From the IMG/VR virus record IMGVR_UViG_3300006802_000078, positions 1 through 64,000 of that record: a stretch of 64,000 nucleotides of DNA, one strand, 5' to 3'. Below the pieces are notes generated by a model that saw only the letters and a program-made list of their open reading frames with translations, searched no databases and had not been told where the DNA came from. Both the position numbers and the translations under genes were made by a program. Shown piece after piece: positions 6,982-49,549 of the stretch (the stretch's first letter is position 1; the number at the start of each line of letters is the position of its first letter). The DNA is from a virus.

Positions 6982-9900
6982 CTATGCTTCCTTCAGGTTG
7001 GTACCGACGCCCGCGCTGCTCGTGTAGGCCACGGGCTCTCCCTCGAAGACGACTTGCATGAGCTCCTCCACCCGAGCGCGGGCCCGCTCGGCGTCGGCGT
7101 CCCAGCGGAGGATCTTCTTCCCACCCGGCCCTGCCTCGTGCCACGCACGACCCCGCGTCTCGACCACGAGCTGGTCGTGGACCTGGAGCACCACGCCCGT
7201 GCCGGGTCCTGCGTGGCCTCGGTAGAACTCGGTGAGCAGCTGCTGCTCGGCGCACCAGGCGATGTGGGCTTCGTCTCGCAGCACCGGCCAGTTCACCACG
7301 GCGTTGAGCTTGCCGTCCTCGAGCGGACCGCTCCGCACCTTGGTGTAGCCGCTCTTCATCCAGCCGCCGTTGCGGCGGTACTCGGCGCAGAGCGCGTCCC
7401 ACCGCCACTGCCACTGGGGCTCGGCCCGCATCCACTTCTCGTGGTACTCGATGATGTCGTCGAGCTGGTAGCCCAGGTAGGGCAGTGAGCCGTCGTTGCG
7501 CTCGGTCGAGGTGATGACGCGCCAGATCGTCGCGGGCGCCGCGCCGTAGATGGCGGCGTAGCGGAAGATCTTCATGACGTCGCGCATCATGTCGGCGTCG
7601 CCCCCCTCCGGCTTCCGCTTCAGGGAGGGGGGAGCGTCCCCCCAACCGGTCGCGTCGAAGTAGGCGTCGCCGTAGACCGCCGCCGCCAGCGCCCCGTGAG
7701 GGTCGACGCCGTTGGCGAACGCCTCGCAGAGCACCGGGATCCCCCAGCGGTTGGCGATGATCCGCAGGTGGAGCTGGTCGATGTCGGGGCCGATGAAGAC
7801 GTGCGGCTCCCCCTTGGGCCCCTTGCCAGGGACGAAGATGGTCTTCAGCGCCGCCTGGCCCTTTTTCTTGCCGATGACCATCAGCGATGGGCCGTTCGAG
7901 GTGAGGCGCCAGACCGCGGTCGAGTGGGAGCCGAAGGTCGATCGAACTCTACCGTCGTGGTCCCACACGAGGCCCCCCTCGGAGCGTAGCCCGAGGGGAA
8001 GCAAGGTTGTTCCAAGCATCTTGCCCATCTTTCTACGATAGAGTCGAAGATGCTGAAGATAGAAAAGCTGGGCGCGGCTGAGCGAGCTGCCCGCCATGTG
8101 GGCCAGGATGACGGCGTCGCCCGTCCCGGGCAGGCCCGTGCCGGTGAGGAACTCCTTCTCGCTCATCCCCTTGGGGACGCCGAGCTGCCAGTCCTCGTAG
8201 AGGAGCCGCCGCATCTGGTCGAACGACGCCGGGTTGAAGTCGCTCGTCCGCTTGAGCTCGTCGACCGCAGCCGCCCACTCGTCGGAGTCGACGTCGCGGG
8301 GGTTCAGCCCGAACATCTCGCAGACGTCGTCCTCCCCGAAGGTACCCAGCGCGAAGCCCCCCTCGGAGTCCTGCAGCTGGATCCGCTCAGCCCCCGCCTC
8401 GGTAGCGAGGCGCTTCATCTGGTAGAGGTGGTCCGCGGCCTCGATCCTGAGCTGGGCGATCTGCCGCCTGCGCTCCACTTGGTCGACCACGATGCCGATC
8501 TCGGACATGTCTCGGCAGAAGGTGCGACGGGAGTGGTCGATGCCCTGTTGGGTCAGCTCTGGATGCGACGCCGCGCTGCCGTAGCCGACGCTCGGGCGGT
8601 AGCGGTAGTCGACCACATCGTAGTAGCCGTTCTCCCTGGCTTCGCGACGCAGGCTCGGCAGGATCCGGAGGTTCACGATGCAGTCGGTCTCGTTGTACTC
8701 CTGCCGCTCCTCGGCGCTGACCTTGTCGGAGGTGGCCGCTTCCTCCCCCTTGTCGTTGATGTCCCAGCGATCGACGTCTGTGCGGAGCCTGCCCTGGGGC
8801 TTCAGCCCCTTCGGGCTGTCGGGCATGGCCGCGCGGGCCAGGTCGAGTGAGTCCTCCGTGCACGCGTCGATGAGGGTGATGCCGTAACGGTGCTTCATCA
8901 CCAGGTAGTCGAAGCTGCGGACGTTGTGCCCCACGACACGGGGGAGGGGCCTGCCGGCGAATACCCCGACCGAGTGGAGCCAGTCGTCGAACAGGCGCAG
9001 GATCCGCCACCAGTCGCGCGCCGAGTACCACTCGCGGGTGACGCCAACGCTCCGCGCCGGCCACGCGGCGTCGAGGGGGTTGTCGACCACGATGCCCCCC
9101 TCGTCCAGGTCGGGGGCGGCGATGGCGAAGCACCGCACGTCGGTGACGAAGGTGACGATGCCCGTCGTCTCGATGTCGAAGCTGTACTCTGGGTAGGGGG
9201 TGCCTTCGGCATGACCCGGGCACGAGGCGAGCAGCCAGTCGCGGAACTGCTCGACGGTCGGCCGGCGCAGCCTGTCCCCGTAGGTCCAGCGGAGCTTGTT
9301 GTTGAAGTAGCGGAGCGCCTTCTCCAGGTCGTGCTTGAGCCAGGGGCGCGCCGCCGGCGAGCGCATGGTGAAGGCGGGGTGGAACGACGCCAGCGCTGGC
9401 TTCGGCTCGCTGCTGGCGCCCTCGGGTAGCAGCCCCGCAGCCTTCATCGTGTCGCCGCGGTGCTTTGCGATGCCACCCCGCACCCCGGTGACGGCGCGCA
9501 GGGCGGAGGCACCCAGCGGTACGATCCCCCGGTACGGCTCGGCGGTCGCGAGCAGCGCTGGGTGGCAGCACTCGACCGGATCGGGCAGCTCCATCATCAC
9601 GGCGCGGTCGGCCGCCGCCTTCGTCATGTAGGCCCCGCTCGCGCGGAGCTCGTTGCTCCGCGCCTTGCGCATCCGGGACAGCGTGGCTGTCATGCGAGAC
9701 CAGGCGCCTGTCGGATCCCCCGGGATCTTGCAGAGGAGCACGTTCGTCAGCGAGAACATGCTTCGGGTGAGCCCAGCGGCAGCGAGCACCCGGGCCAGCT
9801 CAAGGCCGGAGGCCCCCGCCAGGGGGTAGCCGCGCTGCACCTCCTTCCACGCAGGGCTCTCACCGACGAGCAGGTACTCGGCTCCGTCGTTGATCTCGGG

Positions 9901-10059
9901 GAGCACGGGTACGAGCGGCTCTCCAGAGGAGATGCGCAGCCTCCCCTTCGGACCGATGGGGCACACATCGCACCGCGCCCCCGCCGCCATCGCATCCTGG
10001 CAGGTAGCAGCGGCGACGTCGTCGGGTAGGTTGCCTGCTGCGGGGCGCCGCCGCCGCAT
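6982..10059 (-). CDS. polA: Family A DNA polymerase with N-terminal uracil-DNA glycosylase-like domain (SPO1-type) and 3'-5' exonuclease
   Basis: UDG motifs LVGESPA..E, GASG, TNVLLC, FHPAF; ExoI FDIETTG, ExoII GHNVRSFD, ExoIII YNETD; motif A PDIDQLHLR, motif B RDVMKIFRYAAIYG, motif C LQVHDQL. Confidence 0.93.
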   Translation of the reverse strand: MRRRRPAAGNLPDDVAAATCQDAMAAGARCDVCPIGPKGRLRISSGEPLVPVLPEINDGAEYLLVGESPAWKEVQRGYPLAGASGLELARVLAAAGLTRSMFSLTNVLLCKIPGDPTGAWSRMTATLSRMRKARSNELRASGAYMTKAAADRAVMMELPDPVECCHPALLATAEPYRGIVPLGASALRAVTGVRGGIAKHRGDTMKAAGLLPEGASSEPKPALASFHPAFTMRSPAARPWLKHDLEKALRYFNNKLRWTYGDRLRRPTVEQFRDWLLASCPGHAEGTPYPEYSFDIETTGIVTFVTDVRCFAIAAPDLDEGGIVVDNPLDAAWPARSVGVTREWYSARDWWRILRLFDDWLHSVGVFAGRPLPRVVGHNVRSFDYLVMKHRYGITLIDACTEDSLDLARAAMPDSPKGLKPQGRLRTDVDRWDINDKGEEAATSDKVSAEERQEYNETDCIVNLRILPSLRREARENGYYDVVDYRYRPSVGYGSAASHPELTQQGIDHSRRTFCRDMSEIGIVVDQVERRRQIAQLRIEAADHLYQMKRLATEAGAERIQLQDSEGGFALGTFGEDDVCEMFGLNPRDVDSDEWAAAVDELKRTSDFNPASFDQMRRLLYEDWQLGVPKGMSEKEFLTGTGLPGTGDAVILAHMAGSSLSRAQLFYLQHLRLYRRKMGKMLGTTLLPLGLRSEGGLVWDHDGRVRSTFGSHSTAVWRLTSNGPSLMVIGKKKGQAALKTIFVPGKGPKGEPHVFIGPDIDQLHLRIIANRWGIPVLCEAFANGVDPHGALAAAVYGDAYFDATGWGDAPPSLKRKPEGGDADMMRDVMKIFRYAAIYGAAPATIWRVITSTERNDGSLPYLGYQLDDIIEYHEKWMRAEPQWQWRWDALCAEYRRNGGWMKSGYTKVRSGPLEDGKLNAVVNWPVLRDEAHIAWCAEQQLLTEFYRGHAGPGTGVVLQVHDQLVVETRGRAWHEAGPGGKKILRWDADAERARARVEELMQVVFEGEPVAYTSSAGVGTNLKEA

Positions 10060-43174: not shown

Positions 43175-43585
43175 TCACCTCTCCCAGCGAGCGCGCATGG
43201 CCGCGATCTTCTCGACGGGCACACCGTGCACGCAGCGCGCGGCCAGCTCCTCGTCGGACAGGCCGGCATCGAACAGGTCGATGGTCCGCACATTCGCGCC
43301 GAAGCAACGGGCCATCTCCCGGTAGAGGAGCATCTCCCACTGCTGGCTGAAGGTGTTGGCCACGGCCACGTTGAAGCCGAGAGCCAGCGCGTGCAGACAT
43401 GCAGCTTGGCAGCGGGCGTGCGCCTCACCAAGCCGGGCGGGATCGAACGCGTAGTTGCCGCGCTCGTCGACCATGTAGTCGTCGGCCGACAGCGCGACAC
43501 TCACGGCGCCGGTGGCCTCGAGCTCGTCCGCGAAGGTGGACTTGCCCGCACCGGGCAGGCCTCGGATCTCGAACAGGGTAGGCAT
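43175..43585 (-). CDS. P-loop kinase (AAA_33, polynucleotide-kinase-like)
   Basis: IRGLPGAGKST, SADDY, AH..CQ, VANTF, HGVP...I..M..RWE. Confidence 0.9.
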   Translation of the reverse strand: MPTLFEIRGLPGAGKSTFADELEATGAVSVALSADDYMVDERGNYAFDPARLGEAHARCQAACLHALALGFNVAVANTFSQQWEMLLYREMARCFGANVRTIDLFDAGLSDEELAARCVHGVPVEKIAAMRARWER

Positions 43586-43832
43586 CGTACTCCTTTAGTT
43601 CTGTCGTTACGTACTCGTCCCATCCGCCGCCGGGGTATCCCCGTGGGCGAACGTTCACGTTGAACCCGTGACGAGCAGCCAGCCGCCGTACGGTGCGGCA
43701 GGCCGAGTGCCCGTCCTGGTAGCCGCAGACGCGAGCGACCACGAGCCAGCTCCACCCTGCGTTGTAGAGGGCAGCTCCGTCTCGTGCGTCCTCGATGGCC
43801 TCCGCTGTCGTTACGCCTGGACGGCGGCCCAT
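43425..43832 (-). CDS. HTH-like protein (3' end overlaps the kinase gene)
   Basis: LYNAGWSWLVVARVCGY..GHSACRTVRR. Confidence 0.55.
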   Translation of the reverse strand: MGRRPGVTTAEAIEDARDGAALYNAGWSWLVVARVCGYQDGHSACRTVRRLAARHGFNVNVRPRGYPGGGWDEYVTTELKEYDAYPVRDPRPARCGQVHLRGRARGHRRRECRAVGRRLHGRRARQLRVRSRPAW

Positions 43833-44620
43833 TCAGCACACGTCCTCGAACAGACGGCACATGCCCCAGCTCCCCCCGGAGCGGAGGCCGACCTCGTAGC
43901 CGCTGCGGGTTCGCAGGGGGCCAAGCAGCCACGAGGCCGGAGCCGTGCGCTGCTCGCAGGTGACGGGTGCCCGCGTCAGGTCATCGACGAGAGCGAGAGC
44001 GAGGAGAGCGACGAGCACGGGCATGGCGAGGTACCTCCTGACTTCCAGGCTACCATCGCGCGGGCCACACGGTGGCGGTGACGACGGTGAGGGTGAATAC
44101 CACCATCGCGCCGATGGCCCAGGCGGTGGGGCCGTAGCCCCACAGCATGAGCAGGGCAGCGTCAATCCCGCGGGCGATGCGCATGGGCATCACCACGTAT
44201 GCTGCGGCGGCGGCACCGAGGAGGGCGAAGAGGATGAGGCGCATGGGAAAACCTACGGGAAGGTGGTGGTGACGAAGAAGAGGAGGCCGCCGAGTGCGGT
44301 TCCGATGGGCAGGGCCAGCCCCAGGCTGAGCGCCGCCTCGATGAGGATGAGGCGCAGCATCACCGCATCTCGGCGGCGTCGCGCAGCAGGTCGAGGCGCA
44401 GGGCCTCGGCCTCGTGGGCGCTGCGACGGAAGCCATCCGCCCGCTCGGGACAGCGCTCGGCGGCCTGGCGCAGCCCGGCGGCGAGCTTCTGCTGCTCGAA
44501 GGCCCGCTGCTGCAGGCGCTTCCGGCGCTGGGTACGCGCGCGGGCGGCCGCGCCGTCGGTGGCGAGGAACCCTGCGCTCTTCAGCGCGTCGTACATCTGG
44601 TTCATTTGCATCTCCCGCAT
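43833..44620 (-). other. Three small membrane proteins (43833-44024, 44050-44244, 44253-44360) and a helical protein (44360-44620)
   Basis: Hydrophobic segments; consecutive ORFs. Confidence 0.55.
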
Positions 44621-44778
44621 CTCTCGTGGTCAGTCGGCAGTCCACTTGGACCAACGTGTGTTGGTTGCAGGCCCACGCCATTGCCCCACGCGCGGCGTCA
44701 TTGCCGCACGCTCGGCTTCGCACCTGCATTACCCGTGGCTTTAGCCTCAGTTGCCTGCGGTCGAGTTATGGCATCAAG

Positions 44779-45004
44779 TGGTGGAGGCGAGCGGCTTCGA
44801 ACCGCCCGTCGAGTATCGCAACCTCGGATCTGGGGGGCCACGGCTGGGCTCAGGCGCTGGCGCGCTCAGCTCACGGTGTGCATGTGCACCTGCACACCGG
44901 CCAGACGCGCCGTGCCCCGCCCCGGGGCGTATGGGGTAGCCGCAGCAGGCGACCCCCAACAACGAGGATGCACTCGGCGCCGGCGCCACCTGCCGGCCGC
45001 CCCC
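44779..45004 (-). ncRNA. Short tmRNA-like / tRNA-Ala-like RNA (226 nt)
   Basis: 5' GGGGGCG pairs with 3' CGCCUCC-A-CCA including G3.U70; T-arm GGCGG-UUCGAAG-CCGCU; long-range helix 44963-44976 with 44810-44826; begins 6 nt after the upstream stop codon. Confidence 0.75.
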
Positions 45005-45010
45005 GTATGG

Positions 45011-45537
45011 TCACTCGTCGTGGAAGGTCTTCGCCTCGGCGACTGCTGCTTCGAGGCTGTCGAAGATCATGACCTCCCCCGCGTCGCCCACGATGGGGCG
45101 CCACGAGGTGAAGCCGCTCATGGCGATGAGCCGCCACTGCCCATGGGCGATGCGCTCGGCGCGCAGCTCCCCGAGCCCGGGGTAGACGTAGCCGGTGGGC
45201 TCACCGGGAACTTGGCCGCAGGGGCGACCGGGGACACGACGTGTGGTCATGGCTTCTCCAGGAGGTGGATGAGGGTCAGGTCGCCGAGCATCTCGGCGAG
45301 GATGTGGGCTTCGAACACGGCCAGGGTCTGGCCTTCGCCGAGCAGGCACGGGTCTTCGATGTTGCCGTGCGCCCCCGCGTAGAGATGCGTGCAGCCGTCG
45401 TCGTCGACCTCCCACCAGGAGGAGGCCTCGTCGATGCCGTCGGGGTCAGGCCGAGCCAGCCGCGCGAAAGCGGCTTCGGCGATGGCGAGGTACCCCTCGG
45501 GCCCCTCTGCGAATGGGATCATGCCAGGATACCACAT
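45011..45537 (-). other. Two small hypothetical genes (45011-45250, 45247-45537)
   Basis: ATGA-coupled ORFs with SD sequences. Confidence 0.65.
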
Positions 45538-46749: not shown

Positions 46750-47195
46750 CTGGTACAGTGTTTCACGTGTTTCATTTTCGCGTGAGACACTGTAAGTGCT
46801 TGGAATCCTGTTCGCGGATCCGTTGTTTTATACCGAGTGCACACCAATGGAGGATTTTTGTGGCGAGCGGAAAAAAGAGGGGACCTCCTCGGGGGGTTTG
46901 TTCGCTTACGGCTCGCCGGATGGCTCCGAAGTGCAACCAGTATTTAGAAGTATAACTAAGTATAGTTATAAGATTACTGATTGCTGCTGCTGCGGCGGTT
47001 GGCGCGGCCCTTCGTGGGCCGCGCTGCCGTGGTTGTAGCCCCCGGCGGGGTAAGCCGAAGCCGAGAGGGGGAGGTGGCGCAACACTGGGGCAGGGCTGCG
47101 CCGTAAGTAGCTGAATATGCGGGGGGTAAGGCAATATGCAATATAGTGCATATACGCTTACCGTGATGCACATTGTATGCGCGGGAGTAAGCGTT
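46750..47195. other. AT-rich non-coding patch with palindromes; candidate replication origin
   Basis: IR 46754-46794; TATAACTA-agta-TAGTTATA at 46951-46970; AGTAT at 10-bp period; IR 47154-47194. Confidence 0.5.
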
Positions 47196-47748
47196 ACCGG
47201 GACAGCTTGTGGCGGATCTCGCTGTAGTCCTGCCACGCGGCCTCACTACGGCCCGCCGCCAGAGCAGACCCCCAAGGTGACACACGCATGCGGACCTGGG
47301 GATCGACAGTCGCCCCCTCCCACGAAGACACGCGCGCTGGCGTCGTCGTAGAGGTTGCGCCGCTGCGGACTACGATGCGCTTCCGCTCGCACATGGTACG
47401 CAGAGCCGCATCCATGAGCGTACCGACGTGCCCCTGCGGTAGCGCGATAGTCAGGGTCACTACGTCATCCCCCTTCGGCATGGCGCGGGCAACCCCCGCC
47501 CACGAGCGAAGCTCGCCCGCCGCCTCCCCTGCCAGGCGCGCGCGCTCCGCCCATGCCTCGTTGTCCTGCACGTCCTGCGCCGCCCGCGCCAAGTGCGGCG
47601 CGCGGTCCTTCCTCGCATGCGCCAAGCGCAGAGCGGCCCCTTCGGGATCCCTGACTTGGGCCCTACACTCCGCCGCCCCCTGCGCGAGCAGGTCACACGC
47701 AGAGAGCAGCACGGCGCGAAGCTGCGCCGGCGTCGCTTCGATTACCAT
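47194..47748 (-). CDS. Hypothetical protein
   Basis: 184 aa; SD AGGAGG. Confidence 0.65.
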   Translation of the reverse strand: MVIEATPAQLRAVLLSACDLLAQGAAECRAQVRDPEGAALRLAHARKDRAPHLARAAQDVQDNEAWAERARLAGEAAGELRSWAGVARAMPKGDDVVTLTIALPQGHVGTLMDAALRTMCERKRIVVRSGATSTTTPARVSSWEGATVDPQVRMRVSPWGSALAAGRSEAAWQDYSEIRHKLSR

Positions 47749-47789
47749 TACGCACCCCTCCTGGTTGCACTTTCGCTCTATCTGTTGAC

Positions 47790-48910
47790 CCTACGCGCGG
47801 GCACACCCCTTCGATGGGCTGGCGCGTAGTCGGAGCCGAAAGCAAAGACATAAGCATAGGGCCAGGGCAGCTTAGCTGCCCTGGCCCATTCGGGTTTGGC
47901 GAGCCCAGCAACGGCGCGAGGGCGCCGATACCAGCTTGACCGTGGGTTATCCCCGCGGCCCCTGTCATCGCCCGCTAGGGCTCTGGTTCGAAGCTGCAAT
48001 ATCGACCAATGGGCTCCCCGTATCGTTTCCGGATCATGGCCCATTGTTCCCTCGTGGGTGCGCCGTTGCGGGGCCCACCTACACTGTCGGCTTCGGGATA
48101 GCCGACGATAGCGACCGATCGCCGTTGTCAATGGCGACGCGCTATCTGTTTATGTGTGTGAATACCGTTCAAACGACCGCCGCCGGTATCCTACCCGGTA
48201 CGCTACGCCGTTTCGTCGCTTCACCCTACTGTATGTGAGGCGGTATTGGCGTCTATCCGTCGAGACGCGCTACCCACCGCCGATCCTTTGCTACCCGCGC
48301 CACGATCCCGCTTCCTGCCCTCTGGTTCCTTTCACCGGGAGCGCCGGGGCCGCGGGCTACTGCCACCATGGGGGCCGCCTACGCTTGTGAAGGGGGCGCC
48401 CATGGCGCGGGGTAGCTGCTACCGCCGTCGCTGAGGGAGGGGGGGTCGTGGGGGGTGTCAAAGGGCGCAAGCCGACTACCTGTCGCCGACCCTCGGGGGC
48501 TACCTCCGGGGCGACGGATCCCGCTATCGAGCGGCCGAGTGGACCCTTGGGTGATGCCATAGGGCGCGCACGTCGAGACCCGGATCCCCACTGGTGTCCC
48601 GGGCGACAGCTACAGAGGACGGAGGGAGGGCTTACCGGGTAGTCGCGCACGGGGCGGAAAGTGACGCGTCGTCGCTTGCCGTGGCGTTACTGCCTTCCTC
48701 CTCCCGTGCGCCGACATAGGGGCCGAAGCCCTTGCTGCGGGTGGGGGGCGGATCAGATCACCAGACAGGGGACACCGTCCGCTATGCCGCGGAGGAGGCG
48801 CCTGTCTGTACGGGTAGGGGCTGAAAAAGACCGAAGGGGGCCGAGCGGGGGTTAGCCGTCCGCCCTCTGAGGAGGACCAGGGAGTCCCCTGGTCCTGCAC
48901 AGAGGGCAGC
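47790..48910. ncRNA. Candidate large structured RNA or ssDNA element (~1.1 kb, about 20 helices)
   Basis: No credible ORF; nearly contiguous 6-13 bp inverted repeats and nested long-range stems. Confidence 0.6.
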
Positions 48911-48913
48911 GGG

Positions 48914-49549
48914 CTACCAACCGCCGACCTTGCGGGAGGCCGCCTTGCGCCGCGCGCCCGGGACAGGGATCGAAGCGTTCCGACCGCGGAGGTGACTGTC
49001 CATCGCGGACAGCGCCTCCCCGTGGGAGCGGTTGCTGCCGTTGACGGCGACGGCGGCCGCGATCGCGTGGGTGATCGCCTCCTGAGCTTCCTGGTAGCTG
49101 GGCGCCGCGGTGATCAGGCGGAGGATTGCGGCCTTGACGGCGGTACGCTCCGCGCCGACCGTGGAACCATCGAAGTAGGCGATCGCGCTCTTGCCTTCAT
49201 CGGGGAGGTAGACCAGGAACGCAGGATCGGCGGGGAGCGCGGAGCGGGCCTCGTCCTTCCCCAGCTTGGCGCCGACGCGGTAGCGGCCGATCATGCTGGC
49301 GACGGCGGGATCGGCGGGATCGGCGGAGGGGGCCACGGTGTCCAGGGTGGCCCGGAGGTTGGCGATCGTGTCGTCACGATCGGCGATCGTCGCCAGGAGG
49401 GCGGCGATCGTGGCGTCGCGGTCGGCGATCGTCGCCAGGAGGGAGACGGCGTCGGTGTTGGTGTCGGTGTCGGCAGGGGCCGGCGCCACGTCGACGACGA
49501 CGGGGGCGGAGGGGGCGGAAGCGGCGGTGGTGCTGGTCTTGCGGGACAT
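48914..49549 (-). CDS. Hypothetical early protein with a 14-aa tandem coiled-coil repeat
   Basis: 211 aa; LLATIADRD.TIA twice (42-bp period, 49380-49443); SD AGGA; promoter upstream. Confidence 0.8.
   Translation of the reverse strand: MSRKTSTTAASAPSAPVVVDVAPAPADTDTNTDAVSLLATIADRDATIAALLATIADRDDTIANLRATLDTVAPSADPADPAVASMIGRYRVGAKLGKDEARSALPADPAFLVYLPDEGKSAIAYFDGSTVGAERTAVKAAILRLITAAPSYQEAQEAITHAIAAAVAVNGSNRSHGEALSAMDSHLRGRNASIPVPGARRKAASRKVGGW

Follow-up and report, generated by a model that had tools for sequence, protein, structure and literature searches.

A 226-nt tRNA-shaped RNA with alanine identity elements in the genome of an uncultured freshwater phage

Both ends of an alanine-type tRNA, set on either side of a large middle domain, can be recognised at one locus of an uncultured freshwater phage, and this raises the question of what kind of RNA, if any, the phage encodes there. 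A preliminary description of the locus proposed a hybrid of tmRNA and tRNA-Ala in which the D-arm is paired and a canonical degradation tag is lacking. As functions it suggested ribosome rescue without a protease tag, titration of SmpB, AlaRS or EF-Tu, or a decoy for tRNA-targeting defence nucleases. The phage is represented by IMG/VR record IMGVR_UViG_3300006802_000078 (91,625 bp, 69% GC, CheckV completeness 100%); the window analysed here, to which all coordinates refer, is the first 64 kb of that record. The gene content includes a podovirus-type portal, a large terminase, a DNA polymerase of family A joined to a UDG-like domain and a 4447-aa protein carrying a polyvalent-protein domain. 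The closest known relatives, among them N4-like Roseobacter-group phages and Rhizobium phages, show just 23-33% identity in polymerase and terminase. No RNA sequencing run is listed for the locus. Contigs of the same phage are present in several freshwater metagenomes (DNA sequencing runs). They differ by zero letters inside the RNA, the sole listed difference in a 4-kb stretch being a 2-base insertion at 43588, so that there is no population variation to read.

The genome is tightly packed, with a coding share of 93% by GC3. The GC3 signal, which marks every gene of the genome, is lost from about 45010 to 44650, and the region of the RNA is non-coding; among the stretches of the whole genome that lack coding signal, this gap ranks third in size. 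The RNA gene lies in it on the minus strand, flanked by a 79-aa ORF (stop at 45011) and an 86-aa ORF (start at 44620). The upstream 79-aa protein belongs to no Pfam family and gave no informative Atlas match. The spacer that follows the CCA end has no significant structure (fold z = -0.99), and no promoter-like or terminator-like sites were found around the RNA gene. ARAGORN at default settings reported zero tRNA and zero tmRNA genes for the whole genome, and SmpB, RtcB and RNA ligase are all missing from it; with no other tRNA gene and none of these proteins, the genomic context carries no functional hint.

The features of the locus are given below from 5′ to 3′ on the minus strand, with positions in the RNA in brackets.

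45011-45250, minus strand: upstream 79-aa ORF; its ATG overlaps the stop of the preceding gene, and 7 nt separate its own stop from the RNA.
44779-45004, minus strand: whole tRNA-shaped RNA, 226 nt, from G1 to the encoded CCA, defined by sequence and fold; all tRNA-like helices are kept.
44998-45004, minus strand: acceptor 5′ strand GGGGGCG (RNA 1-7), starting 7 nt past the stop codon of the upstream ORF.
44979-44997, minus strand: D-arm GCCGGC-AGGUGGC-GCCGGC (RNA 8-26) with a 6-bp stem; pair probability 0.99.
44963-44976, minus strand: 5′ strand (RNA 29-42) of a 13-bp helix that replaces the anticodon stem, pairing with 44810-44826.
44827-44962, minus strand: GC-rich insert of 136 nt (RNA 43-178), a long irregular rod with one side hairpin in the minimum-free-energy and centroid folds; it contains the candidate tag frames.
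44874-44899, minus strand: tip of the predicted rod (RNA 106-131), where CGGUGUGCA / UGCACACCG form a 9-bp hairpin whose loop is 8 nt long; pair probability 0.99.
44810-44826, minus strand: 3′ strand of the same 13-bp helix (RNA 179-195), with a GAU bulge; it includes UUGCGA, ARAGORN's anticodon loop, with UGC at 44818-44820.
44790-44806, minus strand: T-arm GGCGG-UUCGAAG-CCGCU (RNA 199-215), which aligns to the T-arm of Rfam tmRNA_permuted.
44779-44789, minus strand: acceptor 3′ strand CGCCUCC, discriminator A (A223, equivalent to A73) and encoded CCA (RNA 224-226).
44621-44778, minus strand: 158-nt spacer, non-coding in the GC3 plot, from the CCA end to the next ORF (44360-44620).

The acceptor strand GGGGGCG pairs 7/7 with CGCCUCC (RNA 216-222, window 44783-44789) and contains G3.U70, which together with A73, G1-C72 and G2-C71 makes up the identity set for AlaRS; the CCA is encoded. 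The D-loop AGGUGGC retains A14 and G18G19 (tRNA numbering), and the T-loop retains U54-U55-C56-G57-A58, so that both loops of the tRNA elbow are present; position 8 is G, not U. The long-range helix consists of 5 + 3 + 5 bp with one U.U mismatch and one GAU bulge. All helices are intact (acceptor 7/7, D 6/6, long helix 13 bp, T 5/5). The acceptor, G3.U70, discriminator A, CCA, T-arm, long-range helix and D stem are all found where the preliminary description had placed them, and its reading of the RNA as alanine-type with a paired D-arm holds. It had also drawn three hairpins within the insert. The 9-bp hairpin at the tip was recovered; GGGGU.GCC/GGC.ACCCC and GCCCCG/CGGGGC are possible on paper, at a probability of 0.06 or less, their segments pairing instead with the 3′ side of the insert. 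The insert is thus predicted mainly as a single long, irregular rod that extends the 13-bp helix and bears one small side hairpin.

The likelihood of such an arrangement arising by chance in GC-rich DNA was estimated for the separate elements and for their combination. A 7/7 complement to the acceptor is expected 0.42 times within 360 nt and is alone weak evidence in this genome. When a D hairpin next to the acceptor and a 5-bp helix toward the T-arm side are required as well, the expected number is only 0.008 per 360 nt. The motif formed by a 5-bp T-stem, TTCRANN, 7 nt and NCCA occurs once in the 91.6-kb genome, both strands included, and in 0 of 100 first-order Markov genomes. The minimum-free-energy fold has -131 kcal/mol (z = -2.65 against shuffles), and ensemble pair probabilities are 0.90 for the acceptor, 0.99 for the D stem, 0.95-0.99 for the long helix, 0.98 for the T stem and 0.99 for the 9-bp hairpin. 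Overall, the tRNA-like modules are far beyond chance and thermodynamically dominant, and the RNA gene is very probably real.

Relatives of the RNA were sought by several routes. The locus was compared with 50,697 phage records by distant blastn, which gave no match. The exact 3′ 25-mer is present in 0 of 185,579 species genomes and in IMG/VR only in the phage's own record. Look-ups of the proteins (the 345-aa ORF, kinase, portal and TerL) returned the window's own proteins and one unrelated low-GC contig, and in 5.8 billion clusters the neighbouring proteins and the terminase found only themselves. Structural DNA patterns of the RNA retrieved just ordinary tRNAs from the species genomes, just tRNA arrays and a distinct family of about 215 nt from metagenomes, and tRNA arrays with one att-like fragment (in L141) but no homologue of the RNA from IMG/VR; the fragment was rejected as a relative, having no sequence or proteins in common with the phage. 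Portal relatives could be found at about 28-30% identity, and 37 of their records, including four with a completeness of at least 90%, were searched with a single-sequence model of the 226-nt RNA (R2), which finds its own copy at 276 bits as the single copy in the genome; no match was obtained. By these sequence comparisons the RNA is an orphan, since the viral, metagenomic and bacterial collections yielded no homologue, and consequently there is no covariation and no proof of selection.

The RNA could be explained as a tRNA mimic: a phage gene product that is stable, tRNA-shaped and of alanine type, and does not decode. We adopt this explanation tentatively, with slightly less than even confidence. 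It draws on modules that are beyond chance, on the non-coding gap they fill, on the intact helices, on the tmRNA tests that failed (see below), on the lack of a fitting Rfam class (at E up to 10, neither the insert nor the RNA matched any family of introns, ribozymes, tRNAs or Y RNAs) and on precedents in other phages. The RNA would be transcribed together with its minus-strand neighbours; neither a promoter nor a terminator of its own was found. By the rules of tRNA biology RNase P should cut at G1 and exonucleases should trim the 3′ end to the CCA; by the identity rules host AlaRS may charge the product with alanine via G3.U70 and A73. The tRNA body would in this way provide for processing, stability and probably alanylation, and the rod would be the phage-specific part, a handle. 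As it stands, the 226-nt RNA is predicted to be unable to read a codon, and it has no tmRNA D-loop; from these two properties we infer that it acts as a mimic. It may bind, or compete for, a host factor that reads the ends of tRNA-Ala or of tmRNA-like molecules, such as AlaRS, EF-Tu, SmpB or a tRNA-directed nuclease. The core is non-canonical in its 6-bp D stem, in G8 for U8 and in 2-4 extra nt that separate the D stem from the long helix, so that the L-shape and recognition by AlaRS and EF-Tu are not guaranteed.

A published precedent is an RNA of mycobacteriophage DS6A. This phage carries a tag-less tmRNA-like gene described as 'TLD only', a similar molecule inhibits tmRNA strongly, perhaps by titration of SmpB, and the tag-less forms of tmRNA on record from phages are presumed to disturb trans-translation (PMC4131195, PMC11915505). 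The DS6A RNA is described as little beyond the TLD, whereas the 226-nt RNA bears a 136-nt rod.

Phages with tRNA-shaped RNAs that are not tRNAs are already known, namely T4 (species 1 and 2) and T5 (RNA1 and RNA2). In the T5 record rna1 and rna2 are annotated 'tRNA-like stable RNA with unknown functions', and in the T4 record rnaC and rnaD are annotated as small stable RNAs. T5 RNA2 folds with an acceptor stem, a D-arm and a T-arm (loop UUCGAAU), its anticodon loop being replaced by an enlarged domain, and T4 rnaC ('species 1') has a clear T-arm, CCGGG-UUCGAAU-CCCGG. Like the 226-nt RNA, these molecules are phage-encoded, non-coding and tRNA-shaped, which makes the design a common one and does not imply homology. 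They show no sequence similarity to the 226-nt RNA, measure 119-144 nt against its 226 nt, and are located inside tRNA gene clusters, whereas its phage is without any tRNA. T5 RNA2 and T4 rnaC also lack G3.U70 and an encoded CCA. In comparison with the T5 and T4 RNAs, the insert of the 226-nt RNA is much longer and the junction of D and anticodon regions is irregular. What is new at the present locus is the full alanine identity set with encoded CCA, the unusually long rod, and the position as the sole tRNA-like gene of a mid-sized, integrase-less phage, not in a tRNA cluster. The gene is an unannotated orphan variant within a class that is known in outline and poorly understood; it is not a new category. 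If such RNAs are charged with alanine and yet do not decode, phages may quite generally employ them to interfere with ribosome rescue, aminoacyl-tRNA supply or tRNA-directed defence.

The first alternative to be weighed is an intron-containing tRNA gene, in which removal of about 148 nt (RNA 36-183) would leave a 78-nt tRNA-Ala(UGC) decoding GCN codons for the phage. When introns were allowed and the threshold was set to 90%, ARAGORN called a tRNA-Ala(UGC) with a 148-nt intron at position 36, between tRNA positions 32 and 33, with anticodon stem GAGUG/UACUC and loop C|UUGCGA. The UGC anticodon is consistent with the G3.U70 identity, and the sequence spliced in silico is accepted as a tRNA at ARAGORN's default threshold; the unspliced gene is not called at that threshold. 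Other cut points give an equally good tRNA-Arg(GCG), so the anticodon call depends on the cut, and two other G3.U70 RNAs treated below (L036 and L082) are read as 'Pro' and 'Arg' when introns are allowed, which marks ARAGORN anticodon calls as unreliable here. Because the result shifts with the cut point, the ARAGORN anticodon was dropped as evidence of identity.

A canonical cloverleaf has 2 nt between acceptor and D stems, 1 nt between D and anticodon stems, U8, and a 7-nt anticodon loop with U33 and purine 37. The spliced product itself would depart from it in carrying G8 and in having its D and anticodon stems 5 nt apart. No group I intron, other intron or ribozyme of Rfam matched at E up to 10. 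The group I introns known from bacterial tRNA genes are about 200-250 nt long, and the 148-nt insert falls below this size. A known splicing class would be recognised by a group I core with -1 U.G and omega-G, or by a bulge-helix-bulge; inspection of the sequence placed the 5′ splice site outside a U.G pair of a P1 helix and revealed no bulge-helix-bulge motif, and RtcB and RNA ligase are both missing from the phage. A published parallel is provided by Lak megaphages, in which tRNA genes with 'enigmatic introns' were described (Devoto et al. 2019, PMC6784885). These genes are likewise oversized, with extra sequence that interrupts the anticodon region and belongs to no known class of introns; they differ in being otherwise classifiable tRNAs that belong to large tRNA sets of phages of about 540 kb and 26% GC (PMC6784885). 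On balance we consider a spliced tRNA unlikely. That a CUUGCGA loop with an alanine anticodon can be assembled at all is nevertheless the one observation left unexplained by the tRNA-mimic reading.

Since the preliminary description had placed the RNA partly among tmRNAs, this assignment was analysed separately. The likeness to tmRNA (SsrA, RF00023) lies in the alanine-type acceptor end (7-bp acceptor with G3.U70, discriminator A73, 3′ CCA), in the UUCRA-type T-loop of a T-arm adjoining the acceptor 3′ strand, and in the tRNA ends that flank a helix-joined middle domain. The differences lie in a tRNA-like D hairpin instead of the unpaired GGAUUCGAC loop, and in the lack of a recognisable pseudoknot 1 or tag. 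The conserved D-loop GGAUUCGAC (consensus GGaUUCGAC) is absent, and RNA 8-26 forms the 6-bp hairpin in its place. Rfam tmRNA (RF00023) scored 5.2 bits against a cut-off of 47, matching the 3′ 29 nt of the RNA only; Rfam tmRNA_permuted (RF04321) scored 16.1 bits against a cut-off of 47, matching T-arm and CCA only. The tmRNA search of ARAGORN gave 0 tmRNA at default and, on the excerpt, at ps90, and 59 calls across the genome at ps80, which are evident noise. On sequence grounds the RNA is therefore not a recognisable member of the tmRNA family, and its description as a tmRNA hybrid is not supported; the topology, with both tRNA ends flanking a large middle domain, is tmRNA-like.

A reduced one-piece tmRNA could in principle still enter stalled ribosomes and add a peptide that is not a degron, freeing the ribosomes without a mark for proteolysis. 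Its topology would fit, a long helix connecting the tRNA-like domain to a central one. The acceptor stem GGGGGCG/CGCCUCC and the UUCGAA T-loop are the same as in a bona fide tmRNA (L079, 194.6 bits), the GAC before the T-arm matches the tmRNA consensus, and phage tmRNAs are on record (PMC4131195). The candidate resume codon GCC (RNA 77-79) follows AUAC and falls within the predicted side hairpin, in its 9-nt loop. The frame which the preliminary description had singled out was reproduced: it runs from this GCC (44928) to UGA at RNA 137-139 (44866-44868) and reads APGRGTARLAGVQVHMHTVS. However, the bona fide tmRNA has both the unpaired GGAUUCGAC D-loop and the pseudoknot-message layout, which are missing in the 226-nt RNA. 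There is no evident pseudoknot 5′ of the resume codon, and the greater part of the putative message is paired within the stable predicted rod and not open among pseudoknots. None of the ten candidate frames that start with alanine has an Ala-Ala type C-terminus or a degron-like end, so the canonical degradation tag is indeed missing; the stop codon of the candidate tag frame is outside any hairpin loop, and no conservation singles out a frame. The phage also has no SmpB. Considering these features together with the failed Rfam and ARAGORN searches, we regard a reduced tmRNA as quite improbable.

A bolder version of the same idea is a trans-translation RNA of new build, a one-piece molecule of 226 nt with a paired D-arm and no SmpB-type D-loop, which would add a non-degron peptide, recycle the host ribosomes and spare truncated phage proteins. 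We give this possibility very little credence. A permuted, two-piece tmRNA was rejected, as no acceptor 5′ strand is present downstream of the CCA and the match to RF04321 is not extended.

The locus might also be functionless, that is, a decaying tRNA or tmRNA pseudogene, an att remnant of the 3′ end of a host ssrA or tRNA gene, or a chance likeness. The RNA is a singleton without relatives, its D/anticodon junction is non-canonical, and the acceptor complement by itself is readily expected in a GC-rich genome, as noted above. Chance is opposed by the T-arm and CCA motif, unique in the genome and never produced in the random genomes, and by the full set of modules, expected 0.008 times or less per 360 nt. 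The helices are all intact and the partner nucleotides of the D- and T-loops are kept, which is not expected of a decaying relic. The preliminary description had named as a possible outcome that only the 3′ ~35 nt would match a host ssrA, as in an att-site remnant. This is not borne out: the structure includes the 5′ half, which is paired and has its own D-arm, no tyrosine or serine recombinase (integrase) is encoded in a genome rated 100% complete by CheckV, and the exact 3′ 25-mer is absent from all species genomes and from the rest of IMG/VR. A functionless locus is accordingly also very unlikely.

Two further candidates were rejected. Complementarity of the RNA to the phage genome is not beyond chance, which disposes of an antisense regulator. 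In YrlA-type Y RNA the RNA ends reportedly form the stem that binds Ro (Ro60/Rsr) and the tRNA-like acceptor is closed by a loop, as Chen et al. are said to have described in 2014; the topology here is the opposite, the RNA ends being the acceptor stem with a free CCA, and no Rfam match was seen at E up to 10.

RNAs of similar outline are present in other phages. Pattern searches identified an alanine-type tRNA-like family of about 215-220 nt in huge phages (L036, L148, L149, L151, L154, L156 and L159), and the family (alignment A1, model R1), as represented by L036, L148, L149, L151, L156 and L159, has 25 covarying pairs and a paired D-arm. The family has the same acceptor GGGGGCG/CGCCUCC as the 226-nt RNA, the UUCGAA T-loop, an encoded ACCA, a paired D-arm and a similar length, with a middle domain of about 140 nt closed by a long-range helix. 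The resemblance does not extend further: R1 scores 17.9 bits on the 226-nt RNA, as a local match to T-arm and acceptor only, and R2 scores 19-27 bits on the family, the middle domains being unrelated. As far as sequence comparison can tell, neither this family nor a 148-nt RNA with G3.U70 and CCA found in L082, whose tRNA junctions are fully canonical, is homologous to the 226-nt RNA beyond the tRNA-like ends. Standard annotation with ARAGORN and Rfam misses such RNAs. The family scores 31.9 bits with Rfam tmRNA, under the threshold, and is missed by ARAGORN; the 148-nt RNA is likewise under the Rfam tmRNA threshold and missed by ARAGORN. One family member (L149) is on a 543-kb contig, and the sole member whose surroundings were inspected (L036) adjoins a tRNA array in a 607-kb phage.

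TRNA-like RNAs of the alanine type, approximately 215-220 nt long, form a family in other phages. Its members are located at the following positions in the respective phage sequences:

L036:9668-9882, minus strand
L148:134-353, minus strand
L149:9137-9355, minus strand
L151:2522-2741, plus strand
L154:2400-2619, minus strand
L156:1444-1658, minus strand
L159:7700-7913, plus strand

The ends are those of an alanine-type tRNA (GGGGGCG/CGCCUCC followed by ACCA), the D-arm is paired, and the loop motifs GGUAAUGC and AAACC are invariant. This conserved RNA family has 25 covarying pairs. ARAGORN does not detect it, and the Rfam tmRNA score of the L036 member (31.9 bits) is under the cut-off. A UUCUAAACC stretch is nearly conserved; since its UAA is lost in L151, the family has no conserved stop codon. 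The L036 copy, the only one whose surroundings were checked, adjoins a tRNA array; the phage that carries it is 607 kb in size. The contig bearing the L149 member is 543 kb long.

Nine letters, GGGTAATGC, are found at positions 44726-44734 of the window (minus strand), 45 nt 3′ of the CCA end of the 226-nt RNA. The identical sequence constitutes the invariant hairpin loop of the huge-phage family of ~215-nt RNAs. The family model gives this site just 1.2 bits, and the match may therefore be coincidental.

Structural pattern searches also led to elements in two other viral contigs:

L082:1956-2103, minus strand, a 148-nt RNA
L141:2037-2274, minus strand, a tRNA/tmRNA-like 3′ end in a 91-kb viral contig unrelated to the window's phage

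The L082 RNA, encoded on a low-GC phage contig of 119 kb, has a perfect tRNA body with G3.U70 and ACCA, a 4-bp D-arm with G18G19 and a 9-bp anticodon-stem analogue; the body carries a 72-nt insert, itself holding a T-arm-like hairpin. Its Rfam tmRNA score is 30.1 bits. The L141 3′ end comprises a T-arm, GGCCUCC and ACCA. Judged from its sequence, it appears to interrupt a putative open reading frame and looks like an integration-site remnant.

Three proteins of the window's phage should be mentioned:

window 43175-43585, minus strand, a 136-aa AAA_33/polynucleotide-kinase-like ATPase (PHROG 2071, E 2e-25)
window 6982-10059, minus strand, a 1025-aa protein
G000:C1:75279-88622 (L004:79-13422) of the same genome, plus strand, a 4447-aa ORF

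The ATPase gene lies 1.2 kb downstream of the 226-nt RNA, and neither an RNA ligase nor RtcB accompanies it in the phage genome. The 1025-aa protein combines a uracil-DNA-glycosylase-superfamily domain (residues 55-249) with a family-A DNA polymerase (residues 594-976). The 4447-aa ORF takes up one seventh of the genome, its sole recognisable domain being LPD23, a 'large polyvalent protein associated domain'.

The largest stretch of the genome without coding signal (719 + 395 nt) is at 47746-48943 of the window, upstream of the minus-strand gene block and ~0.9 kb ahead of the point near 49.8 kb where plus-strand genes take over. A perfect 14-bp palindrome (47859-47887) and an imperfect 38-nt inverted repeat (48845-48924) lie within this stretch, which may have a regulatory function or serve as an origin. 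Separately, GC content dips locally to 54% at 46750-47050, against 69% for the genome.
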